This document shows, one piece after another, positions 4,320-20,391 of a stretch of 64,000 bases of DNA; the first letter of the stretch is position 1, and each line of letters opens with the position of its first letter. The position numbers and the translations under genes were made by a program. Under the pieces are notes generated by a model that saw only the letters and a program-made list of their open reading frames with translations, searched no databases and was not told where the DNA came from. The DNA comes from an uncultured Gammaproteobacteria bacterium. Lineage in GTDB: Bacteria; Patescibacteriota; Microgenomatia; Levybacterales; UBA12049. The stretch spans positions 21,936-85,935 of the forward strand of contig CAZWXQ010000001.1 in the NCBI GenBank assembly GCA_964637955.1, given 5' to 3'.

Positions 4320-4335
4320 GTTAGAAAGGCAGGAA

Positions 4336-4554: not shown

Positions 4555-4609
4555 TATTCCTATCTTCATAGCTTGGAATTTCAGTAATTACTTTCTCATC
4601 AAATAAATA

Positions 4610-5038: not shown

Positions 5039-5078
5039 AACATTATTGGTAGGATAAAATTATAATTTTGATGCCAAG

Positions 5079-5981: not shown

Positions 5982-5988
5982 GCACAGA

Positions 5989-6225
5989 TTATAACAAATT
6001 GAGGATGGATTTTTTTTGCAATAAATTTAGTCGCAATAAATAATTAGCCTCTTTTAAGAGGCAGTAATTAATTTTTCCAAATCTTTTCCGCATTACTAGT
6101 TTTCCATCAGATTCAGCAATTTTTTTAGCTTTATTAATATATTCTTTAGTTTTTTCTGGCTCTACAGTATTTAGAAATTCTTTTGGATATTGAGTAGAAA
6201 TTTTTGTTTTAGGCTCTGCCATCAT
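5989..6225 (-). CDS. Small hypothetical protein
   Basis: 78-aa ORF. TGATATAAT lies 6 nt upstream of the ATG. Confidence 0.35.
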   Translation of the reverse strand: MMAEPKTKISTQYPKEFLNTVEPEKTKEYINKAKKIAESDGKLVMRKRFGKINYCLLKEANYLLRLNLLQKKSILNLL

Positions 6226-6260
6226 GAGATTATATCAAATGATGTTAATGGAATCTGAAA

Positions 6261-6944
6261 TTAATCTTTTGTGGAACTAAAGCCTTTTATAAGAATCCAG
6301 AAACCTATTACTAACTCAAATGGAACATAGGGTAGGTATATTAATGTTGGAACAGTTTGCCCAAAAACAGTAAAAAGTGTTGCAGATAGAATTATACTTG
6401 CACCAATGATTCCCCAAATTGAAAGTAATCGAGGGATAAGTTTTGATTTATAAAAAATGTAGTAGAAAAGAATAGCTCCAATGCTAAACGGTAAAAGTGC
6501 GAGTGTCATACCAAAACCCATGGTTTGAAATGAAAGATTTCCTAAAGCCTGAAGTAATGCTTGTCCACCTGATAATGCATATTCATGACTAATACCTAAA
6601 AGAATAAATGCCCAAAGCATGCTTGATGCAAGAATTGTACCTTCTAGAATATATAGTCCAAATCCTACCGTTGCTGCTTTTTTATTTTCTTTCTTAAGAG
6701 CTATATAAAGCATAGATCCGAGGAACACTATTCCGATAGCTGTGATAACTTGCCCTAAAATACTTATCCTGATTATTAAATCATTTGAAGCAATATTATT
6801 TAAATTTAAATTTACTATTTCATTTGTAGGAAGTGAGTTGCCTGGTAAAACTTTGCTGGGAATTAGTCCACTAATTAGTGAGGTGAAAAACTGAAATAAA
6901 AACGCGAAACCTAATAATCTTTGGGTATTTTTATCAAGGTTCAT
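6261..6944 (-). CDS. DUF4386-like integral membrane protein (tentative)
   Basis: Six TM segments with a family-like N-terminus. TGATATAAT-N6-ATG. Confidence 0.45.
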   Translation of the reverse strand: MNLDKNTQRLLGFAFLFQFFTSLISGLIPSKVLPGNSLPTNEIVNLNLNNIASNDLIIRISILGQVITAIGIVFLGSMLYIALKKENKKAATVGFGLYILEGTILASSMLWAFILLGISHEYALSGGQALLQALGNLSFQTMGFGMTLALLPFSIGAILFYYIFYKSKLIPRLLSIWGIIGASIILSATLFTVFGQTVPTLIYLPYVPFELVIGFWILIKGFSSTKD

Positions 6945-7016
6945 CCAACAATTATATCAAAAGAAAATTATTTGGATAAATCTTTATTGCGTAATTAATG
7001 TAATATATTTTAATTT

Positions 7017-7250
7017 CTAATCTTGAGCGCCATCTCGAATTTCTTGAGCCTTCCTGTCTGCTTCACTCTTAACCCTATCAGCTTCTTCATCAGCTAGTCG
7101 TTGTTTATCATAAGCGGCTTGCTGGTCAGCAGCATCTTTTTGCTCTTGAGCCTGCTGGTCTATCTGATCTTTTTTCTTCTGTAAGTCATTATCGACCATA
7201 AAATATCCTCCTTTAATTATTAATGATAGGAAATAGTTTTTAGAAAACAA
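7017..7250 (-). CDS. Small Q/D/E/A-rich helical protein
   Basis: 77-aa ORF. Unusually for this window it has a canonical AGGAGG Shine-Dalgarno 8 nt upstream. Confidence 0.4.
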   Translation of the reverse strand: MFSKNYFLSLIIKGGYFMVDNDLQKKKDQIDQQAQEQKDAADQQAAYDKQRLADEEADRVKSEADRKAQEIRDGAQD

Positions 7251-7307
7251 TTAAGAAATCGTAAGAATTTTGAAAGAGGCTAATCTAAAAATTATTAATT
7301 AAAATGT

Positions 7308-8390
7308 TTAATTTTTAGTGAAAGAAAATCCTCTACCATCTCTAATAATCTTGCTACTAACACCTGAAAGATTAGCTATAATATGTTGCTTTTGATCATC
7401 AAGCTTTTGATATTCTCTTTGTCTTAATTTAGATAAGCCAATTTTCATTATTTGCCCTCCTAAATAATAAAATCTCTCTCTTTCATTTAAAGGTCTTTCT
7501 TTTACTTTTTCCTCTTCTTCAGTAATTTCATCATCTGTTAAAACATCAAGTCTTTTAAGAGTATTTATTGCTTCATCAAGTGCTTTTTCCTCTTCTTCAG
7601 CATTTCCTGGCTGAGATGCTTTCCTTTTTGCTGCTTCAAAATATTCTATTTTATTAGCCAAATCAAGCATCGCTTTTCTATTTATACCTTCAGGGATATT
7701 TCTAATATTTAAAACAGCACTTGAAGAAATACCACGATAGCCTGGATGAGACCCGGTAAAACCTGTTCCAACAAATCTACCACCTTGTGGAATTCTACTT
7801 ATAGTAGTACTTACAACTTCTTCAAAAACTTTTGGTCCCAAATATCTTAAACTTTCAATTGCAAACGCTAAATCTACCGTATTAATTCCATGAGAATCTA
7901 GGAAAGCTTCAAGGGATTGAGTTCGAGAAAGAGTGTAATAAAAATTTTTTACATTTATTTGTTGATTTATGGCTTGGTTAAGAGAATCTATTTTTGAATA
8001 GTCAATTGCTATTGGTTTTTCTGTATCCTGTAGATTTGGTTCTTGGCTATCCGTAAGGCCAATTACATTTAGTCTTAATCCAGGATTATCAACTAAAAAA
8101 GCTTTTAATTTTAAACTCTGAAGATTGTATTCTTTTAAATCTTTCATCATAAATCCATCACCACTTCCTATATCTATAACTGTTACTTCGCTTCTGCCAT
8201 TTACAACCGCATCTTTGAGCCTATCAAGCATTAAACTATCTACTGATTCACCGGTTTCAGTGATAAGACCATCTATTGAACTTATTCCTCTTGCAAAATA
8301 TTTAGGTTCAGTCGGACCAAGGTATAGGCCAGTAACTGCTTTAGTGTCTGGGGGTGTAGCTGGAGGCAGCTCAGTTCCTAAATCGCTCAT
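7308..8390 (-). CDS. Class I SAM-dependent methyltransferase domain protein with a charged coiled C-terminal region
   Basis: Motif I is VIDIGSGDGFMMKDL. Confidence 0.5.
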   Translation of the reverse strand: MSDLGTELPPATPPDTKAVTGLYLGPTEPKYFARGISSIDGLITETGESVDSLMLDRLKDAVVNGRSEVTVIDIGSGDGFMMKDLKEYNLQSLKLKAFLVDNPGLRLNVIGLTDSQEPNLQDTEKPIAIDYSKIDSLNQAINQQINVKNFYYTLSRTQSLEAFLDSHGINTVDLAFAIESLRYLGPKVFEEVVSTTISRIPQGGRFVGTGFTGSHPGYRGISSSAVLNIRNIPEGINRKAMLDLANKIEYFEAAKRKASQPGNAEEEEKALDEAINTLKRLDVLTDDEITEEEEKVKERPLNERERFYYLGGQIMKIGLSKLRQREYQKLDDQKQHIIANLSGVSSKIIRDGRGFSFTKN

Positions 8391-8449
8391 TGATTTTGAT
8401 TATATCAAAAGCAATATCAAATCAGGTTCTTTTTGATATTTTTGACAGC

Positions 8450-8917
8450 TCAATTACAAAGTGATGGATTGTCCTTACAGAATTGCTGTTGTTTTTGAAT
8501 AGTTTCTTGAGTTCTTTTTTGAGCATCATTAAATTCTTTATTAAAGTTATCTATCCATTCTTTGCTGCCTAATTCTCCCGGCTTTGGAGTGGCATATGTA
8601 GGCGGTTTATAAGTGTCATTCGAAACACTCTTTTTATAAATTATTACAACAGTTGGAGCTGGCGCTTCGGTAGGCTCTATAGTAGGTTCAGCTGTTGGAT
8701 CTGGAATCATAGTTGGTATTGGTGCTTCTAATGCTTTTGAAATTGAATCAATATTCTTTTTAATGGGGTTAACTATTCTATTATTAATTTCTCCTGATTT
8801 AATTAATGCATAAGCAGATGAAGTAGCTAGAATCGTAATTAATAAAATAATTATTGTGAGAGTTAAGCCTGCTCGAAATGTAACTTGTTTTATATTTGTA
8901 TATTTTTTTGGTTTCAC
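8450..8917 (-). CDS. Membrane-anchored hypothetical protein with a Pro/Thr-rich linker and a C-terminal Cys pair
   Basis: N-terminal TM, linker PTAEPTIEPTEAPAPT, then a C-x7-C tail. Overlaps the LemA stop by 4 nt, so it is co-transcribed. Confidence 0.45.
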   Translation of the reverse strand: MKPKKYTNIKQVTFRAGLTLTIIILLITILATSSAYALIKSGEINNRIVNPIKKNIDSISKALEAPIPTMIPDPTAEPTIEPTEAPAPTVVIIYKKSVSNDTYKPPTYATPKPGELGSKEWIDNFNKEFNDAQKRTQETIQKQQQFCKDNPSLCN

Positions 8918-9450
8918 GTAGTTTGGAAAAAATCTTCTTCGTAGAATTTAAAAATAAAAGCAGCCAAAAGATTTGGAAAAGTTTGAATACTATTATTATA
9001 TTCCTGAACAGATCGGTTATAGTCTTCTCTATAGTGAGCTATATTGTCTTCCGTTTCTTTTAAATCTCTCTGAAGCTGAAGATAGTTTTCATTAGCTTTT
9101 AGCTCAGGATAATTTTCGACAACCATAAATATTGATTTTAATGTTTGAGTTAATAAGTTATCTGCCTGAGCCTTTTCTTGAACAGTTTTTGAATTATCTA
9201 GAGCAGATCTCGCTTCTGTGACTTGTGTGAATGTGGATTTTTCATGTTTTGCATATCCTTGAACAATTTCGACCAATTTGCCAATCAGAGAAGAGCGTCT
9301 TGTAAGTTGGATATCTATGTCAGAAAAATCGGTTTTAACTTGATTTCGATTTTTAATAAATGAGTTGTATCTTGTCAAAAGAAAAATTAAAACCAAAATT
9401 AAGATAATTGCTAAAACTCCAAGTACTGGAAATAGATTATTCATGTTCAT
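8914..9450 (-). CDS. lemA: LemA family protein
   Basis: N-terminal TM plus the characteristic LemA core (RYNSFIKNRNQVKTDFSDIDIQLTRRSSLIGKLVE). Confidence 0.75.
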   Translation of the reverse strand: MNMNNLFPVLGVLAIILILVLIFLLTRYNSFIKNRNQVKTDFSDIDIQLTRRSSLIGKLVEIVQGYAKHEKSTFTQVTEARSALDNSKTVQEKAQADNLLTQTLKSIFMVVENYPELKANENYLQLQRDLKETEDNIAHYREDYNRSVQEYNNSIQTFPNLLAAFIFKFYEEDFFQTT

Positions 9451-9557
9451 ATATTTATATTAGCATTTAAGTACTTAAACTCAAGTACTTAACTCTGATA
9501 ATCAAATCAAAATAGATAAATTAAATATATATTTTTTGAGGTTAGCTGGCTGCAGAT

Positions 9558-10058
9558 TTACTGCCCAGCTTTTCGGATTGCTTCAAGATCAAGTTTTTTC
9601 ATTGGCATGAATACAGCAGTTACTGCCTCTGCTTTTTCAGGGTCACGCATCATTTCATCTAAAATCCTCGGGACTACTTGCCATGTAACTCCGAATTTAT
9701 CTGTACACCATCCACACTGTTCTGCTTCTGGAACTGCTGATAACTTTTCCCAGAAGTAATCAATTTCATCCTGAGTATCACACTCAATAATATATGAGGT
9801 TCCGCCAGTAATCTTGAATTGTTCCATAGGGCCTCCGTTAAGGAACATGAAGCTAATCCCATCAAGTTCGCATTCAGCTGTCATAACAGATCCTTCAGGT
9901 ATGCCAGAGACTTCTTCGGATGCCTTTGGTGCTTTTGTGATGTCTCCAATTGTTGCAGAGTGCTCCCCAGGTGCTGAATTAAAAGTATCTATGTAATATT
10001 TTGCTGCCTCTTCGCCGTCGTTATTCGCGAACCAGAGACATGTTATTAGTTTACTCAT
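9558..10058 (-). CDS. VOC/glyoxalase-superfamily protein of the PhnB / 3-demethylubiquinone-9 3-methyltransferase-domain type
   Basis: N-terminal ITCLWF motif and the duplicated beta-alpha-beta-beta-beta module. GC is higher than the surroundings. TGTTAGAAT-N7-ATG. Confidence 0.65.
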   Translation of the reverse strand: MSKLITCLWFANNDGEEAAKYYIDTFNSAPGEHSATIGDITKAPKASEEVSGIPEGSVMTAECELDGISFMFLNGGPMEQFKITGGTSYIIECDTQDEIDYFWEKLSAVPEAEQCGWCTDKFGVTWQVVPRILDEMMRDPEKAEAVTAVFMPMKKLDLEAIRKAGQ

Positions 10059-10150
10059 TTTATTTATTCTAACATATTTTAATAATTTTTCAGTATTAGT
10101 TCTATAAGAATAATTGATATTACAATCAAGGGATAATTTTGATTATTAAA

Positions 10151-10537
10151 TTATTTTCTAATTTTTAATATTATAAAGCTTGCAATAGATATTTCTATTA
10201 AACTCAAAGGAACTGCAAATATCAAAATATTTAGTGGTAACACTTTTAAATTCCATAATGAAATCCACATTAGGATAAATCCTGCTAACCAAGACAGAAT
10301 AATACTTTGAGAAAATGTAAATTTAGTATTAATGAAATAAATTAATACAGCAAAACAAAGTGACCAAACGCCCCATGTCGCACCATTTATAGGTGTATCT
10401 GGAAAAATTAATCCTAAACGTTCAAAATGATTAACCCACATTGATTTAAATAAAATCTCATTTCTTAAAAATTCAGAAAAACTAATCCATAAAGTTGCCG
10501 CAAATATTGCTAACACTGAATATTTATTTAATTTCAT
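10151..10537 (-). CDS. Small integral membrane protein, hypothetical
   Basis: Four TM helices. TGATATAAT-N6-ATG. Confidence 0.45.
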   Translation of the reverse strand: MKLNKYSVLAIFAATLWISFSEFLRNEILFKSMWVNHFERLGLIFPDTPINGATWGVWSLCFAVLIYFINTKFTFSQSIILSWLAGFILMWISLWNLKVLPLNILIFAVPLSLIEISIASFIILKIRK

Positions 10538-10686
10538 AATAAAATTATATCAAAGGTTCTAATCTATTCCATGGTAGAAATAAATTGATATTTTAAAACT
10601 AGGCTAATTTATTTGGTTCCACCTAATAGAAAATGTCAGAACATATTTCATTAGTCGAATGTATTATGTATAATTTATTCACTATG

Positions 10687-10923
10687 AAAACAATGACTTG
10701 TAAACAGCTCGCTGGCGCTTGCGACATGGAGTTTCATACGGAGACATTTGATGAAGTGGCAAAGCTAAGTCAGCAACACGGAATGGAAATGTTTCAAAAG
10801 GGAGATGTTCCACATCTTGCTGCACAACAGGAGATGATGAAGATGATGTCCGACCCAAATGCTATGCAAAAATGGATGGACGAAAAGCGAAAAGAATTTG
10901 ACCTACTCCCAGAAGACAAATAA
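10687..10923 (+). CDS. DUF1059-like small protein. Start moved from 10633 to 10687.
   Basis: MKTMTCKQLAGACDMEF is a DUF1059-type N-terminus. TGTATAAT lies 9 nt upstream of 10687. The longer 10633 start sits inside a repeated intergenic element. Confidence 0.55.
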   Translation, partial: KTMTCKQLAGACDMEFHTETFDEVAKLSQQHGMEMFQKGDVPHLAAQQEMMKMMSDPNAMQKWMDEKRKEFDLLPEDK

Positions 10924-11010
10924 TCCTCAGGTTCGAGCTCCTAGCTCCCATTTCTGTATTTTCAAAACTAAAATATCTGGCGCCGAGCGGTAGATAAATT
11001 CAGAAATTTT
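10924..11010. repeat. Repeat family copy A. It contains a degraded plus-orientation tRNA-Asn T-arm/acceptor fragment and the box GAGCGGTAGATAAATTCAGAAATT.
   Basis: AGGTTCGAGCTCCTAGCTCCCA against the tRNA's AGGTTCGAGTCCTAGTCACGGA. GAGCGRTAGATAAATTCAGAAATT recurs at 12942-12970. Confidence 0.55.
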
Positions 11011-11468
11011 TAAGATAAAATTCTTTTTGCAGCGATTGGTTTGTAGTATTTAATAAACTTACCAAAATTCCAAATACTAGTACCATTATCAATTAAATTT
11101 GAATGATAGATTTTATTATCTCCGCAGTATATTGCAGTATGTAGTCTAATTATCCAATCTTTTCTATTTAATTCTTTATTTTCAATTCTAATTTTATCTG
11201 CATATATAATATCTCCCTCTTTAAGAAGATTTAAGGAATCTTTGGTAAAAAATCCTTCTTTAATAATAAATTTTCCAACTTTATTAAATGCTTTAGGATT
11301 TAAAAGTAATTCTGATTTGTAAAACTTTTTGTGAATTTTATAAAAGTAATATTGTAATGCTAATCTACAGTTTCCCTCATTAAATTCATCTTTTTTAAGA
11401 TCTCTTAAAAGTAATGGCCCTTTATCAAATTGATATTTAAAATGTTTTAAATCTTTTAACATTTTCAA
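11010..11468 (-). CDS. Hypothetical protein with a possible papain-like Cys...His arrangement (very tentative)
   Basis: ORF with CRLALQYY ... HTAIYCGDNKIYHS. TGATATAAT-N6-ATG. Confidence 0.4.
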   Translation of the reverse strand: MKMLKDLKHFKYQFDKGPLLLRDLKKDEFNEGNCRLALQYYFYKIHKKFYKSELLLNPKAFNKVGKFIIKEGFFTKDSLNLLKEGDIIYADKIRIENKELNRKDWIIRLHTAIYCGDNKIYHSNLIDNGTSIWNFGKFIKYYKPIAAKRILS

Positions 11469-11595
11469 ATTATATCAGAGGTCTTAATCCTGTTCGTGGT
11501 AGGAGCAGATTGATTTATTTAACTGAGGCAAATTTATTTGACTCCGCTGGCAGGCATTTGCCCTGCAAGGATTGAAGGAAAAAAATCCGAACTTA

Positions 11596-12204
11596 TTATG
11601 CTTCAATAATTTGATGCTTATTATCCTTAATTAAAATTGCTTGCTGATCAGTTATTGGAATAATTTTATATTTATCTGAATATTCTTTAAGCACTTTATT
11701 ATGGAGTGTGGAATATTTTGCGTTTTTAAAATGAGGTAATATAACAAAATCTACTAATCCAAATCCTTCGCTAGATTCTAAATTTGCTTCACTTGGATCA
11801 TCAAAGTCTTTAACAGATTCAATGTTTGGGCCTGCTATAACTGATCCAGCACTTGAGCCGATATATATAACACCTTCACTAATTAATCTCTCAACAACTT
11901 TATCAAAACCACTATTCTTAGCTTTTTCTAATAAATAGAAAGTATTTCCGCCTGCCACAAAAATAATATCCACATTTTTCAAGCTCTTTTCAAGATCTTC
12001 TACGCTTTTATTTTTTAAATCTAAATCAAATACTTTAAAACCTAGCTCTGTTAGTTTATTTCTGTCATCTTCTATCCATGGTTTATTCTCATACGGATCT
12101 GCAGCTGTTGGAATAAAACCTAAAGATAAGTTTTCGGGTTTTTGATCTAATAAAGGTAAGAGTAAATGAAGCGTCTTTGATGCTTGAGAGGTCAAGAATA
12201 ACAT
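11596..12204 (-). CDS. Peptidase E / S51-family (class I glutamine amidotransferase-like) dipeptidase
   Basis: IFVAGGNTFYLLEKAK ... YIGSSAGSVIAGPNI with Ser nucleophile context. TGCTATAAT-N6-ATG. Confidence 0.75.
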   Translation of the reverse strand: MLFLTSQASKTLHLLLPLLDQKPENLSLGFIPTAADPYENKPWIEDDRNKLTELGFKVFDLDLKNKSVEDLEKSLKNVDIIFVAGGNTFYLLEKAKNSGFDKVVERLISEGVIYIGSSAGSVIAGPNIESVKDFDDPSEANLESSEGFGLVDFVILPHFKNAKYSTLHNKVLKEYSDKYKIIPITDQQAILIKDNKHQIIEA

Positions 12205-12292
12205 AAGGTGATTATAGCAGAATGAGGCTAAAAATTTCGTTCTGCTAGCAAGAGAAGATTAGAACTTATTTCATCGCATTAATTTGAAATTT

Positions 12293-12784
12293 TTATTGGG
12301 AGAAATATTCAGTTATTTTTGTAGGAGTTAAAACAATACTTACTCGCTCTTCTCTAGAAAACTCTTCAGACATTATTTGCTCAGCACCTTCTGGATCCAT
12401 ATATCGCTCTGCTAAGTGCCTAATGTCTCTTTGTGAAGCTTCATGATCATCATTTAATAAAACTGAGCCTCTCATTGTCACATACTGATAATTTCCTCTG
12501 CTTACTAAAAACGATACATGGGGATTTTCTTGTAAATGCCTATACTTATGCCTGAACTTAGCAGTATTCATTAGGATTGTGCCGTCATCTTGAAGGGCAT
12601 ACCACATTTCTGTCTGAACAATTTCTCCATCTGGTCTTAAAACGGCGAGAATACCTTTCAGGGGTTTTCTCTCAAAAGGTTCAATCAAAAGTTCGCGAGC
12701 ACGGTCTGAAAATCCTACACCTGTAACAATTTCTCTTGTTGGTGGCTCCACTGTAATTATTCCTTGATCATCTGCTTCTGTCAT
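12293..12784 (-). CDS. Pyridoxamine 5'-phosphate oxidase-like FMN-binding split-barrel protein
   Basis: PNPOx-fold pattern (LKGILAVLRPDGEIVQTEMWYALQDDGTILMNT). Higher GC. TGATATAAT-N7-ATG. Confidence 0.65.
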   Translation of the reverse strand: MTEADDQGIITVEPPTREIVTGVGFSDRARELLIEPFERKPLKGILAVLRPDGEIVQTEMWYALQDDGTILMNTAKFRHKYRHLQENPHVSFLVSRGNYQYVTMRGSVLLNDDHEASQRDIRHLAERYMDPEGAEQIMSEEFSREERVSIVLTPTKITEYFSQ

Positions 12785-12950
12785 GGGGCAAATTATATCA
12801 TAATTGAGGCTAAAAATGATGCACCGCGACTAGTCCTTTGGCAAGTTCAGGATTACGAATTGCGCTAAGACTCATTCTCCGATGAATTCTATTCAAAAGA
12901 AGTCATAAAAAAATCCACCGCAAATGGGTGGATTATTTTATGAGCTCCGA
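12785..12950. repeat. ~165-nt intergenic repeat, copy B, ~80% identical to 18148-18311. It contains a TGATATAAT promoter, a TTGAGGCTAA box, a pseudo tRNA-Asn 3'-half and an orphan terminator hairpin ending in TTATGAGCTCC.
   Basis: Direct alignment by eye with copy F at 18148-18311. The hairpin ATCCACCGCAAATGGGTGGAT lies at 12913-12933. Confidence 0.75.
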
Positions 12951-12991
12951 GCGATAGATAAATTCAGAAATTATTATGTTAATATTTAGAT

Positions 12992-13423
12992 ATGGAAGAT
13001 TATCAGCTTGTTTTAGAAGAGGGTGAGCCTAATCCTGAAGATAAAAAAGTTATTGTGGATGGCTTACTTGAAAACCATGCTAGTAGTGGTCATCCGCGAG
13101 AGCCAAAAGAAATCTTTTCAATTCTTTTGAAAAATAATGATGGAAAGTTAATAGGAGGAGTAATTGCCTCTATTCTTTGGAATGGAATGGAGATTGATTC
13201 TTTATGGATAGAGAAATCACTTAGAGGAAAAGGCGAAGGAGGAAAACTCATTGAAGCTGCGGAAAAAGAAGGTTTAAAAAGAGGTTGCACAATTTCCTAT
13301 ACAAATACATTCTCATGGCAAGCGCCTGAATTTTATGAAAAGATGGGATACTCTCTGTATGGAAAGTTGGATGGATTTCCAGAAGGAAACAGTCTTAGTT
13401 ATTACTTCAAAAAATTATCTTGA
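12992..13423 (+). CDS. GNAT family N-acetyltransferase
   Basis: Acetyl-CoA-binding region (RGKGEGGKLIEAAEKEGLKRGC) and GNAT C-terminal motif. Confidence 0.7.
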   Translation: MEDYQLVLEEGEPNPEDKKVIVDGLLENHASSGHPREPKEIFSILLKNNDGKLIGGVIASILWNGMEIDSLWIEKSLRGKGEGGKLIEAAEKEGLKRGCTISYTNTFSWQAPEFYEKMGYSLYGKLDGFPEGNSLSYYFKKLS

Positions 13424-13455
13424 ATTTGGATCCTATAAATAAGTGAAGTTATTAA

Positions 13456-13983
13456 TTATTTTGTCGGATAAATCCTATATTCAACTTCATCCAACATATT
13501 TCCTGCCATATTTTTCTTTTTATATTCATCTTCTATTACTCCTCCTAATGATTCTGCAATTTTTCTACTTGGAATATTTCTACTATCAACTGGATAAATT
13601 ATATATTTATAAGATTTATTTTTATCTATCCATTCTTTCAAAGACTTAACTGCTTCTCTTCCATATTTATGTCCATGAGCACTTTTTTTAATCCAAATGC
13701 CAAGCTCAGGAGTATCTGTATTAAACTTACTAACACCACCATGACCAATAAATTCATTTGTAAGTTTATTTAGAATAACAACTTGTAGCTGCTCTCCTTT
13801 TTCCATCGCTCTTCTAGAAATGTTAATAAAAGACAAGGTTTCTTCAATCTTTTTTGCTGGCTTAGGATACATTAAGACTGTTAATTCATCAGAAAATTCT
13901 TTAAAAATATCTTGGGCATATTTATCAGATGTTGGAACAAGTTTTAGTCTTTCTGATTCTATAATAACACTAAGTAAATTCAT
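13456..13983 (-). CDS. GNAT family N-acetyltransferase (RimL/RimJ-like)
   Basis: ERLKLVP N-terminal motif and HGHKYGREAVKSL. TGGTATAAT-N6-ATG. Confidence 0.75.
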   Translation of the reverse strand: MNLLSVIIESERLKLVPTSDKYAQDIFKEFSDELTVLMYPKPAKKIEETLSFINISRRAMEKGEQLQVVILNKLTNEFIGHGGVSKFNTDTPELGIWIKKSAHGHKYGREAVKSLKEWIDKNKSYKYIIYPVDSRNIPSRKIAESLGGVIEDEYKKKNMAGNMLDEVEYRIYPTK

Positions 13984-14005
13984 GATTTGATTATACCAGA
14001 AGCAT

Positions 14006-14054
14006 TTTGAGGCTAACTTGCTCCACCTAGTAGAAAATGTCAGAACCTATTTCC
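14006..14054. repeat. Short repeat (GGCTAA...CCACCTARTAGAAAATGTCAGAAC) shared with 10601-10650
   Basis: Near-identical 30-mers CCACCTAATAGAAAATGTCAGAACATATTT and CCACCTAGTAGAAAATGTCAGAACCTATTT. Confidence 0.6.
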
Positions 14055-14558
14055 TTAATCAAAGTTCTTTTTAATTATCTCTAGACAATCATCTAAAGAG
14101 GTCTTTTCTGTATCTAAAATAATCGCTCCATCAATGGGATTGTTTAAAACTTTTAAATATAATTGTTCGATCAAGTCTTTTCCAAAATGAGGTCTATTAT
14201 ATTTCTCAGCTCTCTCGTCTTCTCTTTTTTGTAACGTTTCTAAAGAGCATTGTAATTGATAAATGACAACTGGAACATTTTTAGATTTAGCTAATTCGAT
14301 AGCAGCAATAGCATGTTCTGGATTTTTGAAAATCCCATCAAAAACTACACTAAATCCATCCGACAATAAGCGATCTACAACTGCGAGAGCAATATTATTT
14401 ACCTCATCTAATGAGTCACCCGAGTCTTCAGAAAAAAAAGGTTTGAGATTATCAATCTTAAGCCAAACAACTTGCAATTCTTTACTTCTTAATTTCTCAC
14501 CTAACGTAGTTTTTCCACTAGCAGGTGCACCCCGGAGTATTACTAGTGATTGTTTCAT
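14055..14558 (-). CDS. P-loop kinase / AAA_33-like ATP-binding protein
   Basis: Walker A is ILRGAPASGKTT. TGTTATAAT lies 6 nt upstream (plus 14565-14573). Confidence 0.7.
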   Translation of the reverse strand: MKQSLVILRGAPASGKTTLGEKLRSKELQVVWLKIDNLKPFFSEDSGDSLDEVNNIALAVVDRLLSDGFSVVFDGIFKNPEHAIAAIELAKSKNVPVVIYQLQCSLETLQKREDERAEKYNRPHFGKDLIEQLYLKVLNNPIDGAIILDTEKTSLDDCLEIIKKNFD

Positions 14559-14667
14559 TATTAAATTATAACAGGTTCGATCGTCCTATTCGGGGTACTA
14601 GAAATTGAGGCTAAAATACGTTGCCCCCTAAAGGACTTATTCATCAACAGAGAGATTGAGTTTGACT

Positions 14668-14985
14668 TTATACTTGAGGATCTTGAGGTTTTCTATCCAT
14701 TACTGGTTCCACATTAAACTGTGTTTCATGTACAAAATATCTAACATATCCGAACTCTGGAGGATTCTCTCTTGACTGAACTATCTCATCATCTGTGTCA
14801 AGCATTGCCACTCTACCATCCATTAAAACTACTTCCGTTGGTCCTTTTAAAACAACAGCAGGCCAAAGAAATGATGAATCAGGATCTCTTTTATCTCTCC
14901 ATTTCCATGAAGCTGGTTCGCCCAATGTTTGGAGAGATTCAGGGGTTACTGTTCTTAAGTCTATATGTCTGGGGATTTCGGCCAT
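14668..14985 (-). CDS. Hypothetical protein (higher GC)
   Basis: 105-aa ORF with non-repetitive composition. Flanked on both sides by repeat-family copies. Confidence 0.4.
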   Translation of the reverse strand: MAEIPRHIDLRTVTPESLQTLGEPASWKWRDKRDPDSSFLWPAVVLKGPTEVVLMDGRVAMLDTDDEIVQSRENPPEFGYVRYFVHETQFNVEPVMDRKPQDPQV

Positions 14986-15019
14986 GCAGCAAAGATATAA
15001 TAATAGATTTTTTTGTCAA

Positions 15020-15165
15020 TAATATGGTGATTCGTGACTATGTCCTTCCGAGGATATCCGCTCATAAATTCGCTTCAAGACTCAAGAGAGTTCTATTCAA
15101 AAGAAATCATAAAAATTGCTGGATAAAATCCGACTTCTTTTTATGAGCTCAATGCAATGGAAGAA
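15020..15165. repeat. Partial copy (E) of the tRNA-Asn-associated repeat family
   Basis: It shares GTGACTATGTCCTTC..., GAGTTCTATTCAAAAGAAATCATAAAAA and CCGACTTCTTTTTATGAGCTC with copies B and F. Confidence 0.6.
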
Positions 15166-15183
15166 TTTAGAATTTATTTTGGA

Positions 15184-15783
15184 TTATGAGTTCCACATTT
15201 GAGGGGTAAGTATAGGAATATTTAGATTAGTTCTTTCACGAGTTTTATCGCCATAATCATTCCCATTTTTTATCATCATATTGATTTTATTATGATGGAA
15301 ATTCAAATACATTTCTGCTTTTACTTTATCATTTTTTTTCTTGTTCCAATTTTGCTTTAGCTTCGTAAGTCTGTGCTTCGATTGAAAATACTTGAAGAGC
15401 AATTTCTGTTTCATGATAAGTAGTCGTAGTATAAGAATATTGGTCGTTGAATTGCCACCTAAGGTCTTTATTACTATAGTTTTAGTTAATTGCTCCCATG
15501 ATTTGAATTGTGGGTGTTCTGAGTTAGGTAAATCACGCAATGAAGAAATTGATTTTATTTGATTGCATATTAGCTCTGAATTGTTTAACATTCCACTGAT
15601 TATAACAGAGGAATTATTTAATCTATATGGAATTTTAAAATGAGATATTAACATAATCCTAATGGAGTGATGTTTGATGTATGGCTCGTGCTCTGCTGGT
15701 ATGCGTTTGTCATGAGCGAAATCGGAAGAAAAGATTACATCGGATGATTTGATTTCAAGGGGCATTGAGAGTAGAATATCCAT
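15184..15783 (-). CDS. Doubtful ORF, more likely non-coding or a degraded gene
   Basis: Low-complexity, N/K/I-rich translation. Its start codon is 3 nt from the divergent radical SAM start, leaving no room for a promoter, and the genome's usual TGnTATAAT is absent. Confidence 0.2.
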   Translation of the reverse strand: MDILLSMPLEIKSSDVIFSSDFAHDKRIPAEHEPYIKHHSIRIMLISHFKIPYRLNNSSVIISGMLNNSELICNQIKSISSLRDLPNSEHPQFKSWEQLTKTIVIKTLGGNSTTNILILRLLIMKQKLLFKYFQSKHRLTKLKQNWNKKKNDKVKAEMYLNFHHNKINMMIKNGNDYGDKTRERTNLNIPILTPQMWNS

Positions 15784-15786
15784 CCA

Positions 15787-17130
15787 ATGAGCGCAGAAAA
15801 ACTAGATTTATCATATAAACCTGCAAATCCAGTTGCGGGAGATAATAGGTATGGATTGATGGTTTTTCCATCTTTAGATGATTCTTTTTATGGAAGAGAA
15901 AAAAGACTTTTATTGACTCAAAGACTTGAACCATCGGTATTATATGTTGCTCCTCAAGAAGGTCAATCTGAATTTATTTGGGATAATCAACCTAGAGAGG
16001 GCGTAGATCAATATATTTGTTCCGTATACACAAGAGGATGGAATGAATTTAGAAAATTCGCAGAGCAAGTAGGAAGAGAAAAAGTGGTAGCCGGAGGATA
16101 TCACCCAACTGCGATTCCAGAGGATGCATTTAAAGTGGCTCATCAGGTTGTCGCAGGTTATTGTGGAAATATAGATGAGATTTTGGCACAACCTGATGGA
16201 ATTTATACAGGACTTTTTGCATTTACTCCAATGAGAAGAGATCTCATAGATCAGAGAGATTTGAAACAAGTTTATCCAGACGTTCAATCGGAACATATCG
16301 TTGGATCCATGGTTTCATCCGTCGGATGTCCTTTCGATTGTGATTTTTGTTCAACCCCCAAGATGTCGAATAGAAGAATGAGAGTTTCTCCCATGGAATA
16401 CGCTGAACAAGAAATTGCGGATCTTCAGTCAAGAGGGGTAAATTCCGTTTTTGTTAGAGATGAGAGTTTTGCGACAAATCCTCAGATAGTGGAAGTGGCT
16501 AGAATGTTTAAGGGAAAATTTGATTTAGTTTATTCTTTTGGGACAGGAAATGTAATGGGATTAAATGAAGATCTAGTAAGGCAATTAGGTGATTTTGGCT
16601 GGCACTCTTTAAATTTCGGATTAGAAGACGTGGGGAAAAATTATAGAAAAAATAAACTTCTTCAGCGAGCAGCAGACAACTGTAGAGAAAATGGTATAGG
16701 CGTGGTTTTATCATTTATAGTAAATCCTGATGGGAAAACACAAGACGAAGCGAGAGCAAATTATCAAGCTTTATATCAAGCGTTTAATGAGTTAAAACCT
16801 TGGCAAGTCTGTGCCAATTTCCTTATGCCTATGCCAGGAACTGCAATATGGGAACAATATAAGAGTAGAATTACTGAAGCAGATTTTGATAAATTTGATT
16901 CCAAAACTCCTATACTTTGTCCACCAGATTTAGTGGAATGGCATAGGAGAATGATAGTAGCTGTACAGTTAAAATACTATTACAGCAAGCTTTATAATAC
17001 ACAAGTAAGAAGATTTGAAAATGGAGACACATTACACCTAAGAATAGAGGAATTAAAAAAAGAATTTGGATTTGAAAATCATGATTGGGATGAGTTTCTA
17101 AAATTCCCTACTAATACATCAAATGAGTAA
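15787..17130 (+). CDS. B12-binding-domain radical SAM protein
   Basis: N-terminal cobalamin-binding-like region (VVAGGYHPTAIPED) and CxxxCxxC (CPFDCDFC). Elevated GC. Confidence 0.8.
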   Translation: MSAEKLDLSYKPANPVAGDNRYGLMVFPSLDDSFYGREKRLLLTQRLEPSVLYVAPQEGQSEFIWDNQPREGVDQYICSVYTRGWNEFRKFAEQVGREKVVAGGYHPTAIPEDAFKVAHQVVAGYCGNIDEILAQPDGIYTGLFAFTPMRRDLIDQRDLKQVYPDVQSEHIVGSMVSSVGCPFDCDFCSTPKMSNRRMRVSPMEYAEQEIADLQSRGVNSVFVRDESFATNPQIVEVARMFKGKFDLVYSFGTGNVMGLNEDLVRQLGDFGWHSLNFGLEDVGKNYRKNKLLQRAADNCRENGIGVVLSFIVNPDGKTQDEARANYQALYQAFNELKPWQVCANFLMPMPGTAIWEQYKSRITEADFDKFDSKTPILCPPDLVEWHRRMIVAVQLKYYYSKLYNTQVRRFENGDTLHLRIEELKKEFGFENHDWDEFLKFPTNTSNE

Positions 17131-17605
17131 ACCTACGCTTGGTCTAGTACTTGGTAGATTCCAGCCTCTTCACCCGGGACATCTTTCCTTGATTGACACA
17201 GCATTTAAAGAAAACGATTCTGTTGTGATTTGTATTGGCTCAGCGCAAAAAGCTGAGCCTTATACTATAGAAGAACGACATGAACAAATGAAAAAACAAT
17301 TAGATGTACTTCATTATTCTCAAGAAAAATATAGAATTGTTGATCTTATTGACCCCGATCCTATACAAATATGGCCGCCCTATGTAAAAGATACTTGCAG
17401 AATAACGGATGAAACAGTTAACAGATTTTACAGAGCAGAGACACTTCCTGATGAATATGCGCGAGAATTAAACAGCTTAGGATTTGAACTTAGGATTGTT
17501 CCTAGGGTATCATTTTATATTGAGGGTAATGATGGACTATATAGATCTGTAAGTTCGGCAACGGAATTACGGGAAGTAAGAGGAATTGGAAAAGAAAGAG
17601 CTTAA
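17123..17605 (+). CDS. nadM: NadM-type (archaeal-like) nicotinamide-nucleotide adenylyltransferase / cytidylyltransferase-fold protein
   Basis: GRFQPLHPGH (HxGH motif), ICIGSAQ, and a C-terminal SxxxxR-like region. Overlaps the radical SAM stop by 8 nt. Confidence 0.7.
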   Translation: MSKPTLGLVLGRFQPLHPGHLSLIDTAFKENDSVVICIGSAQKAEPYTIEERHEQMKKQLDVLHYSQEKYRIVDLIDPDPIQIWPPYVKDTCRITDETVNRFYRAETLPDEYARELNSLGFELRIVPRVSFYIEGNDGLYRSVSSATELREVRGIGKERA

Positions 17606-17634
17606 TCTATTCTGGCAGATAAAATCCGAACTTA

Positions 17635-18147
17635 TTATAGTTCTGTGACAGAGGCTATTTGAGAGGTATATTTGCCCATCCACTTTAATCCATTCTCTAG
17701 ATTTTCTTTGTTAGTTGCTCCTACTGCTTCTTTTACTACAATTACCTTATAGCCTCTTTCATTTGCAGCGTCACTTGTTGATTGAACACAAACATGGGAA
17801 ACAAGTCCACAAAGCCATACGGTCTCAATTTTATTTTTCTTTAGAATAATATCTAATTCTTTGACACTGAATGCACTATAGTTTTCTTTTTCAAATACAT
17901 GATCATCTTTCATAATTTCTAATTCATCAATAAGTTCTGCTTCCTTAGTTCCTTTAATCATCAAATATTTACTATTAAATCTACTAATAGTTTTTGGATT
18001 ATCAATAATTTTAAAATAAAATATAGGAATATTTTTTTCCCTTGCTATATTTATTAGTGACAAAAGATTCTTTTTAAAATCTTCTGGTTTATAAAGATGA
18101 GGCATCATTCCTTTTTGAACATCAATTACAAGTAATGCTGTATTCAT
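17635..18147 (-). CDS. Isochorismatase-family cysteine hydrolase, possibly a nicotinamidase (PncA-like)
   Basis: LLVIDVQ, a catalytic Cys in VWLCGLVSHVCVQST, and a conserved Lys region. TGTTATAAT lies 6 nt upstream (plus 18154-18162). Confidence 0.75.
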   Translation of the reverse strand: MNTALLVIDVQKGMMPHLYKPEDFKKNLLSLINIAREKNIPIFYFKIIDNPKTISRFNSKYLMIKGTKEAELIDELEIMKDDHVFEKENYSAFSVKELDIILKKNKIETVWLCGLVSHVCVQSTSDAANERGYKVIVVKEAVGATNKENLENGLKWMGKYTSQIASVTEL

Positions 18148-18311
18148 GGGGAAATTATAACAGATTTGAGGCTAAAAAACGGTGCTCAGTGACTAGTCCT
18201 TCGACATGCTCAGGATTGCGAATTGCGATTCGCTTAGACTCATTTTTCGAAGAGTTCTATTCAAGAGAAACCATAAAAAAAGCCGAGCAAAACTCGACTT
18301 CTTTTTATGAG
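18148..18311. repeat. Repeat family copy F. It sits between tRNA-Asn and the isochorismatase gene and carries the tRNA terminator, a diverged pseudo 3'-half of tRNA-Asn and the isochorismatase promoter.
   Basis: Minus-strand read: tRNA end, hairpin AGTCGAGTTTTGCTCGGCT plus T7, then CGCAATTCGC...GTCGAAGGACTAGTCAC. This resembles tRNA positions 23-70 (GCAATTCGC...GTTCGAGTCCTAGTCAC). Confidence 0.75.
18272..18300 (-). terminator. Rho-independent terminator immediately downstream of tRNA-Asn
   Basis: 7-bp stem (AGTCGAG/CTCGGCT, one G-U pair), 5-nt loop, followed by T7 on the minus strand. Confidence 0.65.
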
Positions 18312-18383
18312 CTCCGTGACTAGGACTCGAACCTAGAACCTTTTCGTTAACAGCGAATTGCTCTACCATTGAGCTATCACGGA
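18312..18383 (-). tRNA. tRNA-Asn (anticodon GTT)
   Basis: Folded by hand from the sequence TCCGTGATAGCTCAATGGTAGAGCAATTCGCTGTTAACGAAAAGGTTCTAGGTTCGAGTCCTAGTCACGGAG. 7-bp acceptor, all Watson-Crick. D stem GCTC/GAGC. Anticodon loop CUGUUAA with U33 and A37. T stem CTAGG/CCTAG with a TTCGAGT loop. Discriminator G. CCA is not encoded. Confidence 0.85.
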
Positions 18384-19698: not shown

Positions 19699-20007
19699 GG
19701 GTTAATTATTTCCCCAAATTAATTTATAAATTTTTAGATTAATTACGTAACAAATTCCTACTGTAATTAGAAAAAAAGTTATGAGGGGTTTTCCAAAAAA
19801 TGCAACATCAATAAGCTCTATTAAACAAAGAGTGTGCACAGCGAATATAAAATAAGCTAAGTTTTTCCAAAAATTATCTGTATCCATATTATTGGATTTC
19901 AGACTACAAATTAATGACTAATTAGTCCTTAAATCGTCAACTGAGGTTTTAAATGAGGTTTATTGCTTAATTAAAGTCCTTAATTATAAGTATTTTTCTT
20001 CTGCAAT

Positions 20008-20391
20008 CTACCGATTTTTATTTTCAAGTTCTGATTCGTAATTTTCTTTTAAAATAAATACTTCCATCATCTCTCCTGTTTTAGTGCTTATATCGCTATG
20101 CGAGCTTATAACTTCTTGTCCTGTAATTTCCTCTACGATTAAGCTTAGATTAGATGTTAAAACTTCATGAAGCTTTTTTCTTATGTCTTTAACTATTTCA
20201 ATACCATTTTTTCCTTCAAGAAGTTTTTCTTCGATGGGTAGAAGTTTTCCTTTTAATCGCACTATTACCATGTCTTCAACTATATATATGCGTGTTACTT
20301 CTGGGCCTTGGCCAATTGTATCTACATAAAATTTAGTAACTTCCTTTGAGATCTTGTCTTTGATTTGTCCTATTGTAAGTTTATTTTCCAT
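20008..20391 (-). CDS. DUF2294 family protein
   Basis: Strong family signature (GRGPEVTRIYIVEDMVIVRLKG ... ITGQEVISSHSDISTKTGEMMEVFIL). Confidence 0.65.
   Translation of the reverse strand: MENKLTIGQIKDKISKEVTKFYVDTIGQGPEVTRIYIVEDMVIVRLKGKLLPIEEKLLEGKNGIEIVKDIRKKLHEVLTSNLSLIVEEITGQEVISSHSDISTKTGEMMEVFILKENYESELENKNR

Follow-up and report, generated by a model that had tools for sequence, protein, structure and literature searches.

The window, that is, the whole 64,000-nt stretch of DNA that was analysed, contains a tRNA-Asn gene (anticodon GTT) on the minus strand at 18311–18383, detected by both ARAGORN and Rfam (RF00005, 70.4 bits). The region from this gene (18311) to a 3-dmu-9_3-mt/VOC-family gene (9558–10058, minus strand; PF06983), here called the 3-dmu gene, is best read as an array of about ten mostly single-gene cassettes filling approximately 8.2 kb. 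The first cassette gene, which belongs to the isochorismatase family, is apparently leaderless (17635–18147, minus; PF00857, E = 1.5e-36). The second cassette (15787–17605) is in the orientation opposite to the other cassettes and consists of a radical-SAM gene (15787–17130, plus; PF04055) and a cytidylyltransferase-like gene (17123–17605, plus; PF01467). These are followed by a 105-aa gene (14668–14985, minus), an AAA_33 kinase gene (14055–14558, minus), two GNAT genes identified with Pfam that share one unit (13456–13983, minus; 12992–13423, plus), a PNPOx-like gene (12293–12784, minus; PF01243), a peptidase S51 gene (11596–12204, minus), a 150-aa gene (11010–11462, minus), a 79-aa gene (10684–10923, plus), and a gene for a 128-aa membrane protein (10151–10537, minus).

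Most of the cassettes have their own extended −10 promoter with the start codon 6–8 nt downstream. This means that the mRNAs are leaderless by implication. Thirteen of the 17 sites of the form TGnTAnAAT-N4-9-start in the window are on the minus strand between 5.9 and 18.2 kb, and the cassette promoters evidently mark the variable region.

Most cassettes also end in a remnant of about 33 nt, hereafter the P arm, which finishes in ...GGAGC as the tRNA 3′ end does. Junctions of a second type, which the preliminary description of this DNA had overlooked, are located at 10554–10649, 11477–11546, 12223–12272, 14008–14053, and 14606–14660. The type-2 junction at 14559–14667 (minus) serves the start of the kinase gene and comprises a remnant ending in GTCCTTTAGGGGGC, a TTAGCCTCA box (14606–14614), a CCCGAATAGGACGATCGAACC block, and TGTTATAAT-N6-ATG; its block is also found upstream of other genes in the related genomes L051, L052, and L057. 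The junction ahead of the minus-strand GNAT gene (13984–14054, minus; nhmmer E = 6.3e-6) has a P arm at 14020–14053, the TTAGCCTCA box at 14008–14016, and TGGTATAAT-N6-ATG, and that ahead of the peptidase gene (12205–12292, minus; E = 1.3e-3) has a P arm at 12239–12272, the box at 12223–12231, and TGCTATAAT-N6-ATG. The remaining two are of type 2b. The one preceding the 150-aa gene (11463–11599, minus) carries at 11477–11546 a copy of the sequence that lies downstream of the tRNA in L026, followed by TGATATAAT-N6-ATG. The one preceding the membrane-protein gene (10538–10649, minus; families D1 and D3; nhmmer E = 6.1e-5) is composed of a P arm (10616–10649), an L026-like copy (10554–10620; 76% identity, E = 1.8e-7), and TGATATAAT-N6-ATG; the 79-aa gene lies between it and the preceding junction. 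A weak P-arm remnant beginning with TAATAAGTTCGGATTTTATCTGCC at 17606–17637 (minus), which is non-significant alone (nhmmer E = 0.59), resembles the start of the junction at 11580–11599.

The first type of junction is an element of approximately 165 nt. Copy F (18148–18310, minus), adjacent to the tRNA and followed by the ATG at 18147, contains a terminator hairpin with T7 (18275–18305), an inner pseudo-tRNA half (18184–18226), a TTAGCCTCA box (18167–18175), and the extended −10 TGTTATAAT (18154–18162). Copy B (12785–12950, minus), an internal module, provides the promoter of the PNPOx-like gene (ATG at 12784); its hairpin (12912–12934), inner half (12821–12863), TTAGCCTCA box (12805–12813), and TGATATAAT (12792–12800) are in the same order. 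Copy E (14986–15146, minus), upstream of the 105-aa gene, is decayed, with a weakened hairpin and degenerate forms of the TTAGCCTCA box and the −10. The preliminary description had reported about 80% identity between B and F over some 165 nt, and the alignment agrees with it: with F as the blastn query, B aligned over 175 columns with 76% identity (E = 1.1e-27), and the ungapped blocks (families D7 and D8) are 81–83% identical. The details that it gave are also present, namely CTCGGAG in B where CACGGAG stands at the tRNA end, the B hairpin ATCCACC...GGTGGAT with T7 after it, an inner tRNA-like piece GCAATTCG...GGACTAGTC, and the arrangement TTAGCCTCA-N4-TGTTATAAT-N6-ATG in F, to which TTAGCCTCA-N5-TGATATAAT-N7-ATG corresponds in B. 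As it stated, no tRNA precedes B, the gene at 18311–18383 being the only one given by ARAGORN and Rfam in the window. Copy E is indeed a partial copy (15087–15150, 84% identical to F over 64 nt). A fourth partial copy (10980–11022) and the decayed tRNA-3′-end-like stretches of about 33 nt ahead of B and E had escaped notice.

The inner piece had been taken for a diverged tRNA copy in both B and F. This is supported in F, where it corresponds to tRNA positions ~23–73 (p ~ 0.0015 against shuffles), but not in B by itself (p ~ 0.19); the inner pseudo-tRNA halves other than that of B gave p values of 0.0005–0.0015, and the B piece has derived changes in common with that of F. The type-1 module is adjacent to the tRNA in the window (copy F) and in L034, to which the tRNA and terminator of the window are 97% identical, and is internal as B, E, and a copy in L035. 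The best explanation for the 165-nt element, probable when taken as a whole, is a junction module situated directly downstream of tRNA-Asn in the source lineage. Read on the minus strand, the module starts with the final tRNA nucleotides (...GGAGC) and continues with an intrinsic terminator, a spacer of about 60 nt, an older displaced tRNA-Asn 3′ half, the TTAGCCTCA box, an extended −10 (TGnTATAAT), and, after another 6–7 nt, the start codon.

The hairpins at 18275–18305 and 12912–12934 were matched by the terminator scanner, the latter on both strands as a bidirectional terminator. They have the G+C-rich stem, the T-run, and the conserved pairing of intrinsic terminators. Among six type-1 copies, 91.7% of the hairpin cells are paired and five of the eight pairs show compensatory changes, whereas none of 500 shuffles was as good. 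Because of these compensatory changes across the six copies, the hairpin is considered to have been kept; the "orphan" terminator hairpin is under selection.

A conserved hairpin might also belong to a small RNA, or to a cis-regulatory leader, such as a riboswitch or an attenuator, that came to lie ahead of two genes by duplication. The copies B, F, and that of L034 fold better than shuffles (z = −3.4 to −4.3; −3.6 for B), and weak sub-threshold Rfam matches overlap the hairpin. However, the fold signal comes mainly from the terminator, the remaining predicted structure varies among the copies, and E folds no better than shuffles (z = 0.17). The tRNA was the only Rfam family at gathering score in the window, all others being far below threshold, and a small-RNA or riboswitch identity was rejected when searches at the gathering threshold and with permissive E-values gave the tRNA alone. 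In addition, the start codon is only 6–7 nt past the −10 box, so that the unit lies upstream of the inferred transcription start and would not be a leader, and the downstream genes are mutually unrelated. This explanation is very improbable. A MITE-like non-autonomous transposable element, which would likewise be short, repeated, and non-coding, is hardly conceivable here: the element has neither terminal inverted repeats nor target-site duplications, blastn found no copy of the 165-nt unit outside the island in the 64-kb window, and scans with the type-1 pattern TTATGNNTTCTNTTGAATAGAA revealed no family members, giving 16 chance matches limited to the pattern itself in the metagenome collection and no match in the viral collection.

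The P arms ahead of B (AATAATTTCTGAATTTATCTATCGCTCGGAGC; 12944–12977, minus; nhmmer E = 3.5e-6) and E (ending in ...TTGAGC; 15147–15180, minus; E = 1.4e-4) occupy the place of the tRNA 3′ end. The motif TATTAAC upstream of B was considered as an anticodon-loop relic and rejected; more simply, it is the −10 box (TGTTAATAT, plus strand) of the divergent GNAT gene at 12992. The P arm after the 150-aa gene (10980–11022, minus; family D11; E = 1.5e-5) is 86% identical to the stretch ahead of B and is conserved along with this gene in L034 (window 11479–10965 against L034 2378–2891, 78%). An HMM built from nine P arms, with matches called at E ≤ 1, gave no match in the 64-kb window outside the island. 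It found copies on which it was not trained in L035, L026, L037, and L032, in all four cases downstream of tRNA-Asn and co-oriented with it, and more copies in cassette-like intergenic positions of L038, L051–L056, and L060.

As a family, the P arms resemble the tRNA 3′ end, with a summed anchored score of 141 against 88.9 ± 7.9 for shuffles. The arm in L035 (p = 0.004) is intermediate between the tRNA and the arm ahead of B, with which it shares 31 of 40 positions while being more tRNA-like, and the arms at 15147–15180 and in the junction 13984–14054 each gave p ~ 0.011 for anchored similarity. Single P arms are mostly not significantly tRNA-like (p = 0.39 for that ahead of B in the unanchored test), and the genuine tRNA is not matched by the P-arm HMM. 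For these two reasons, it is only position, the anchored family-level test, and the intermediate forms that point to a tRNA origin of the individual arms. It should be mentioned that the P arms have derived states in common. This means that independent decay of the resident tRNA sequence does not account for all of them; judging from these states, some must have travelled with cassettes or have been duplicated. A dyad-symmetric attB, GAGTCCTAG-N17-TTAGCCTCA centred on the tRNA end, fits L024, L026, and the inner part of F. In older junctions, however, the spacing varies from 10 to 17 nt, and a symmetric attB of this kind is no more than a hypothesis.

The 3′-terminal 22-mer of tRNA-Asn is identical at 15 Patescibacteria/Levyibacteriota MAG loci, and the tRNA 3′ end at 18311 is best explained as the insertion point. 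In L023 and L036, the 3-dmu homologue (87–91% amino-acid identity) starts about 60 nt after tRNA-Asn, which represents the empty site. Since it is the first gene after the tRNA in these relatives, the 3-dmu gene marks the inner end of the array, and the extra DNA in the window is the whole 8.2 kb from 18310 to approximately 10083. An intermediate state is seen in L034, where an array of 2.6 kb, as against 8.2 kb in the window, places three other cassettes between tRNA-Asn and the 3-dmu gene; one of them is a homologue of the 150-aa gene (79% amino-acid identity). The preliminary description had proposed to look for an empty site in which the PNPOx-like gene abuts tRNA-Asn. In the closest relatives it is the 3-dmu homologue that abuts the tRNA, but in the more distant L060 tRNA-Asn, which contains an intron there, is indeed followed first by a PNPOx homologue (68% amino-acid identity) at a distance of 70 nt. 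PNPOx homologues occur at differing positions in the tRNA-Asn islands of L057–L060, and the same cassette gene thus has a different rank from island to island, as is seen for PNPOx (window, L057, and L060) and for the 150-aa gene (window and L034).

The junctions can also be compared directly. Positions 11546–11477 of the window match L026 6809–6878, the tRNA end and the sequence downstream of it, with 86% identity over 70 nt (blastn E = 3e-17). At the level of sequence, internal junctions of the window are therefore copies of what directly adjoins a genuine tRNA-Asn elsewhere. The exact cassette boundaries are blurred; the homology between the window and L034 begins only at the −10 box and does not reach back to the GGAGC upstream of it. 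The genomes compared belong to different species (82–84% DNA identity in the 3-dmu gene), so that they give no evidence of recent mobility.

Pieces of tRNA-Asn of approximately 53–55 nt at contig ends in L029, L032, and L036 were considered as second displaced copies and rejected as such; they are best explained as k-mer overlaps at an assembly-graph branch on the tRNA. The end of the L037 contig also carries a partial piece that was first taken for a displaced copy. The contig-end pieces count only as indirect evidence of variability. As regards excision or circular-intermediate junctions, the Logan contigs simply break at the repeats. More distant 3-dmu homologues (L039–L049) are in contexts that do not adjoin tRNA-Asn, and a genome_contigs scan with the neighbouring 668-aa protein (21273–23279) revealed no relatives.

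The preliminary description interpreted B and F as attL and attR of a single integrated element of about 5.2 kb, which E would split into two cargo modules. B and F are the longest and best-matching copies (76–83% identity), both carry tRNA-terminal nucleotides, and E does lie between them. The interval, however, is made up of five or more units that have separate junctions (17613–17637, weak; 15147–15180; 14606–14660; 14008–14053; 12944–12977), so that neither the single insertion nor its division in two fits the structure of the locus. Four more junctions lie beyond B, where the array runs a further 2.7 kb to 10059, and in comparison with L023 and L036 the window has 8.2 kb more, down to 10083, rather than 5.2 kb that would stop at B. 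Moreover, the interval contains no integrase, and B and F are only about 80% identical, although fresh att duplicates would be near-identical. A single element bounded by B and F is therefore improbable. What stands is the attachment-site origin itself: the repeats seem to derive from an att region downstream of tRNA-Asn, as the copies retain the last nucleotides of the tRNA, are co-oriented with it and only downstream of it, have homologous junctions that abut a real tRNA-Asn elsewhere, and lie in a region that is present or absent among relatives.

The Pfam matches of the window ORFs revealed no integrase and no other recombinase, either in the island or in the rest of the 64 kb, and no tyrosine recombinase family was among the matches listed (in one search, the best 25 of 28 families). 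In L025, the tRNA-Asn 3′ end is directly adjoined by a gene whose product has Resolvase, Recombinase, and Zn-ribbon domains, with genes for Prim-Pol and gp3 packaging functions beside it. L038 encodes a related large serine recombinase at the distal end of a block of genes, 10 kb long, that precedes the 3-dmu gene; the stretch examined there stops short of tRNA-Asn. As judged from these genes, recombinase-bearing elements use the locus in relatives.

The lack of a recombinase in the window would also agree with an origin by homologous recombination, gene conversion, and segmental duplication, in which insulator modules (terminator plus promoter) spread with no site-specific integration and the likeness to the tRNA end comes from a copied tRNA-adjacent intergenic region. 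The compensatory changes in the hairpin and the conserved promoter-to-ATG geometry suit such modules, and the derived states common to the P arms fit copying from junction to junction. It is less easy to see why these modules would in several genomes be found solely downstream of tRNA-Asn and always in its orientation, why the gene content varies cassette by cassette among genomes, and why the copies hold tRNA-derived sequence that has no regulatory role; the recombinase-bearing elements at the same site in relatives also argue against this origin, which we regard as unlikely.

The junctions are instead best read, and probably correctly, as att-derived scars of serial site-specific insertions at tRNA-Asn. 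The repeat family, its limits to the downstream side of the tRNA, the presence or absence of the region among relatives, and the cassette promoters can all be seen in the sequences compared, and from them we infer that insertion was site-specific. F would be the copy now beside the tRNA, and B and E would be earlier copies, pushed inward as site-specific recombination added further small cassettes at the tRNA 3′ end or close to it. Each insertion would leave a tRNA-3′-end-like remnant of about 33 nt (the P arm, ending in GGAGC) ahead of the displaced module. Repetition of this process would lead to the array of about 8.2 kb between tRNA-Asn and the 3-dmu gene, with its approximately ten mostly single-gene, self-promoted cassettes. 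Because the window encodes no recombinase, catalysis is inferred to have been in trans; the likeliest candidate would be a large serine recombinase, as in the larger elements at this locus in relatives.

Islander-type islands at tRNA and tmRNA genes (for the concept, PMC4383910) have a regenerated target and a displaced 3′ fragment and also occur as tandem arrays. The present island resembles them in the intact tRNA at one boundary, in the co-oriented direct repeats of the tRNA 3′ segment inside it and at its far end (most single P arms being non-significant), in a site that is empty or differently filled in L023, L036, and L034, and in mutually unrelated cargo genes. It differs from them in that it has no integrase in cis, its units are about 0.5–2.5 kb and mostly of one gene, and its remnants are mostly heavily decayed with derived changes in common. 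In the islands of Prochlorococcus, serial integration pushes older elements inward and leaves scattered partial tRNAs, and a minority of the tycheposons carry a large serine recombinase and a primase (bioRxiv 10.1101/2020.12.28.424599). Successive integrations at one tRNA, degenerate remnants, and a streamlined host genome are common to both systems, and the L025 element, with its large serine recombinase and Prim-Pol, is similar to these minority tycheposons. However, tycheposons are defined by an integrase and a replication module (primase/helicase) in the element, and both are absent from the window island, which also differs in its host phylum, in its target (tRNA-Asn), and in having self-promoted single-gene cassettes.

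Large serine recombinases insert cassettes of the staphylococcal cassette chromosome (SCC) at the 3′ end of rlmH. Composite SCC elements form tandem arrays separated by direct repeats of the integration site, and pseudo-SCC elements with no recombinase of their own can be mobilised in trans. The present locus is comparable in having a cassette array at the 3′ end of a conserved gene with putative integration-site repeats between the units. Its target, however, is a tRNA gene instead of one that encodes a protein, its units are smaller by a factor of about ten, there is no ccr-like gene in the vicinity, and mobilisation in trans is putative.

Ordered, mostly single-gene cassettes at one fixed site, with the newest presumably beside the site, are also characteristic of integrons. 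Unlike in integrons, no intI with adjacent attI and Pc was found among the best 25 of 28 Pfam families, and attC-type imperfect palindromes bounding promoterless cassettes are absent: the cassettes carry TGnTATAAT promoters, the junctions derive from the tRNA 3′ end, and the P arms by inspection show no inverted repeat, their would-be T-stems being unpaired. It is possible, though doubtful, that the locus represents an integron-like capture system lacking a resident integrase in Microgenomates/Levyibacteriota-like CPR bacteria. Single-gene DNA circles, each with a tRNA-Asn 3′-end mimic (P arm-GGAGC-TTAGCCTCA) together with an extended −10 promoter for a leaderless mRNA, would then be inserted one by one at the tRNA-Asn 3′ end by a large serine recombinase supplied in trans from phage-like elements that share the site, so as to give an expressed, ordered array.

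The locus is best regarded as an island of a known kind with an unusually fine-grained structure, carried by an ultra-small bacterium of the CPR/Patescibacteria. Bacteria of this group have tiny genomes, their routes of gene gain are poorly known, and no report of tRNA-anchored flexible islands in CPR/Patescibacteria was found in the literature. tRNA-Asn appears as a hot spot of gene gain and loss that recurs across several Microgenomates-like genomes, and serial insertion at this gene would explain the assembly breaks at tRNA-Asn in related genomes. The accessory enzymes of the locus (GNATs, a PNPOx-like protein, an isochorismatase, a peptidase S51, a kinase, and a radical-SAM enzyme) are held there as self-promoted, apparently leaderless single-gene units. 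Even if large serine recombinases do not move the cassettes in trans, the locus remains a clean and well-delimited case of island growth by serial insertion. If they do, it would represent a compact mechanism of gene capture, and the tRNA-Asn 3′ end would be a defined attB to try in genetic tools, of which these organisms now have none.

Nearly all of the intergenic regions from the tRNA-Asn down to position 10059, read on the minus strand, are built on one shared plan. Each junction opens with the P arm, an AT-rich stretch of ~33 nt whose terminal ...CGGAGC resembles the tRNA 3' end. Two kinds of sequence follow it. In the short form (type 2), C-N5-9-TTAGCCTCA leads, sometimes through a block of 36-60 nt, to TGnTATAAT-N6-8-ATG. 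The long form (type 1) is the 165-nt unit of the preliminary description; it ends in the same TTAGCCTCA-promoter tail, preceded by CTCATAAAA, a terminator hairpin with a T-run, ~60 nt, and a longer pseudo-tRNA half (positions ~23-73). Exact TTAGCCTCA occurs seven times in the window, five of them at P-arm-type junctions. The region comprises ~10 small units with 12 genes, and single-gene units are in the majority. The tRNA-side part encodes an isochorismatase, a radical-SAM enzyme with a cytidylyltransferase-like protein, a 105-aa protein, and an AAA_33 kinase; the further genes encode two GNAT proteins, a PNPOx-like protein, a peptidase S51, proteins of 150 and 79 aa, and a 128-aa membrane protein. 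Junction E is separated from the radical-SAM gene by ~600 nt (15184-15786) in which the only ORF is of low complexity, with 199 aa (135 aa when counted from the cassette-type promoter at 15591); a Pfam search gave no match for it, and this stretch may be a degraded gene.

Most units have their own promoter. The start codon lies very near it, which means that the mRNA should be leaderless. A count of TGnTAnAAT motifs with an ORF (50 codons or longer) beginning 4-9 nt after them gave 17 sites in the window, 13 of them on the minus strand at 5.9-18.2 kb (5981-18147); such sites are much rarer across the remaining ~50 kb. In the variable region, genes appear to use extended -10 promoters and to lack leaders.

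The window is AT-rich (G+C ~26-38%), and its sole tRNA gene, on the minus strand (18311-18383), is tRNA-Asn(GTT). The type 1 copies F (18148-18311) and B (12785-12950) are 76% identical over 175 gapped columns (E=1e-27), with 81-83% identity in the ungapped blocks. This similarity is confirmed to be far beyond chance, and the duplication claimed previously is borne out, together with all of its details: the tRNA-terminal heptamer, the hairpin and T-run, the inner tRNA-like piece, and the TTAGCCTCA...TGnTATAAT...ATG tail. A third copy, E (~14986-15180), is decayed, and the 43 nt preceding B are found again at 10980-11022 (86% identity). The suggestion that B and F are attachment sites had the correct type of structure but misjudged its extent: rather than bounding a single 5.2-kb element, they are two of ~10 junction scars.

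The terminator of B had been described as an orphan. Among the six type 1 hairpins, the stem sequences differ but the pairing is identical, with 91.7% of cells paired; five of the eight pairs have changed on both sides, and none of 500 shuffles did as well. This means that the hairpin has been selected. The tRNA-adjacent hairpin is predicted to end the tRNA transcript. The hairpin in B is bidirectional, and it would insulate the PNPOx cassette against read-through from the upstream cassette. A reading as an sRNA or leader is ruled out, because the predicted folds outside the hairpin differ between copies, the folding of E is no better than chance, and an Rfam search matched no family.

The inner pseudo-tRNA halves significantly resemble the tRNA 3' half in F (p=0.0015) and in two loci from other genomes, L034 (p=0.001) and L029 (p=0.0005). 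The P arms are far more decayed: unanchored pairwise tests against the tRNA were mostly not significant, and an HMM built from nine P arms matched neither the real tRNA nor, at E<=1, the rest of the 64-kb window. This HMM found untrained copies in the comparison loci L035, L026, L037, and L032, all downstream of tRNA-Asn and co-oriented, and more in L038, L051-L056, and L060, in cassette-like intergenic positions. With the GGAGC end anchored, the P-arm family scored 141 against 88.9 +/- 7.9 in shuffles, a significance overstated by the non-independence of the copies. The L035 arm shows tRNA similarity (p=0.004) and is identical at 31/40 positions to the arm preceding B; the L060 arm reads AAAAGGTTCT... 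Both are clearly intermediate between the tRNA and the decayed arms. The P arms of B, E, and L035 align exactly where F and L034 have the tRNA 3' end (alignment A4). The P-arm family is accepted here as a derivative of the tRNA 3' end. Since P arms share derived states, some were copied or moved once already decayed.

The 22-mer at the tRNA-Asn 3' end has exact matches in 15 loci of GTDB genomes, and one window protein has a close homologue labelled Candidatus Microgenomates in nr; the window is accordingly assigned to a CPR/Patescibacteria bacterium. The interval between tRNA-Asn and the 3-dmu/VOC gene (9558-10058) is 8.2 kb in the window. L023 and L036 carry a homologue of this gene (87-91% amino-acid identity) that begins ~60 nt past tRNA-Asn. 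In L034, the closest relative, whose tRNA plus terminator is 97% identical to F, the gap is 2.6 kb and holds three cassettes, one homologous to window 11010-11462 (79%), P arm included. Two internal junctions are copies of tRNA-adjacent sequence: the final nucleotides of the real tRNA-Asn of L026, together with the next 62 nt, recur at window 11546-11477 (86%, E=3e-17) and, at 76% identity, at 10620-10554. The type 1 module adjoins the tRNA in F and L034; it is internal, with a P arm in front, in B, E, and L035. Homologues of the PNPOx gene driven by B occupy differing ranks in other tRNA-Asn islands: first gene, 70 nt past the tRNA, in L060, and ~2.9 kb into the island in L057-L059. In the more distant relatives L060 (9647-9930) and L057 (6507-7097), a group I intron (Rfam RF00028, 86.3 and 66.7 bits, respectively) splits tRNA-Asn in the anticodon loop, and ARAGORN missed these genes. 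In locus L050 (70-292), two copies of a 15-nt exact direct repeat, TCTAGACGGGGGAGC, lie ~180 nt apart with a terminator hairpin between them. This tRNA-end/terminator/repeated-end architecture is that of the window with a different acceptor sequence; no intact tRNA was called there.

Neither the island nor the remainder of the 64-kb window was found to encode a recombinase. Elements with a recombinase do occupy this locus in two relatives, L025 and L038. In L025 (1-6000; CAYWEP010000044.1, a related MAG), a phage-like element adjoins the tRNA-Asn 3' end. It encodes a large serine recombinase, Prim-Pol/PriCT, a gp3-like packaging protein, and a winged-helix regulator. The recombinase gene (Resolvase, Recombinase, and Zn-ribbon domains) ends directly at the tRNA 3' end, and the Prim-Pol and packaging genes come after it. 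L038 has a related large serine recombinase (phmmer E=2e-28). It is found at the distal end of 10 kb of genes located upstream of 3-dmu, a block that holds additional P-arm-type junctions; the examined DNA stops before the tRNA. The best-supported model, and probably the correct one, is serial site-specific insertion at tRNA-Asn. Each insertion, at the tRNA 3' end or close to it, would displace the prior tRNA-adjacent module inward; the crossover is placed only roughly, somewhere around GAGC, and a large serine recombinase might catalyze the insertions in trans. An integron-like system with its recombinase supplied in trans seems rather unlikely. The main rival, spread of terminator-promoter modules via ordinary recombination without site-specific insertion, is judged quite improbable. 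The proposed serial insertion is the same process as that described for Prochlorococcus islands, where older elements are displaced inward (bioRxiv 10.1101/2020.12.28.424599). This process also underlies Islander-type mapping (PMC4383910).

It should be mentioned that a second variable block of ~5 kb (4561-9557) extends from the 3-dmu gene to an HTH plus membrane-protein pair (3840-4560). It contains LemA, two unknowns, DUF4386, an alpha/beta hydrolase, and small ORFs; cassette-type promoters are present, and no P-arm matches were found in it. In L023 and L034, only ~0.45-0.57 kb takes its place. Genes 19702-19887 and 20008-20391 (MpsC) lie on the 5' side of tRNA-Asn in the window, unlike their homologues in L029 (1-6100), ~5 kb downstream of its 3' end; this switch of side points to a segment inverted or rearranged around a breakpoint at the tRNA. 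Public assemblies of the lineage repeatedly end within or beside tRNA-Asn and the junction repeats (contig ends of L002-L006, L028/L032, and L030/L036), which fits heterogeneity among strains, or repeats, at the locus.

The structure is a tRNA-anchored flexible island of a known kind, and a new example in CPR bacteria. What is unusual in it is that no resident recombinase was found in the island or window searched, and that its cassettes are very small and self-promoted.
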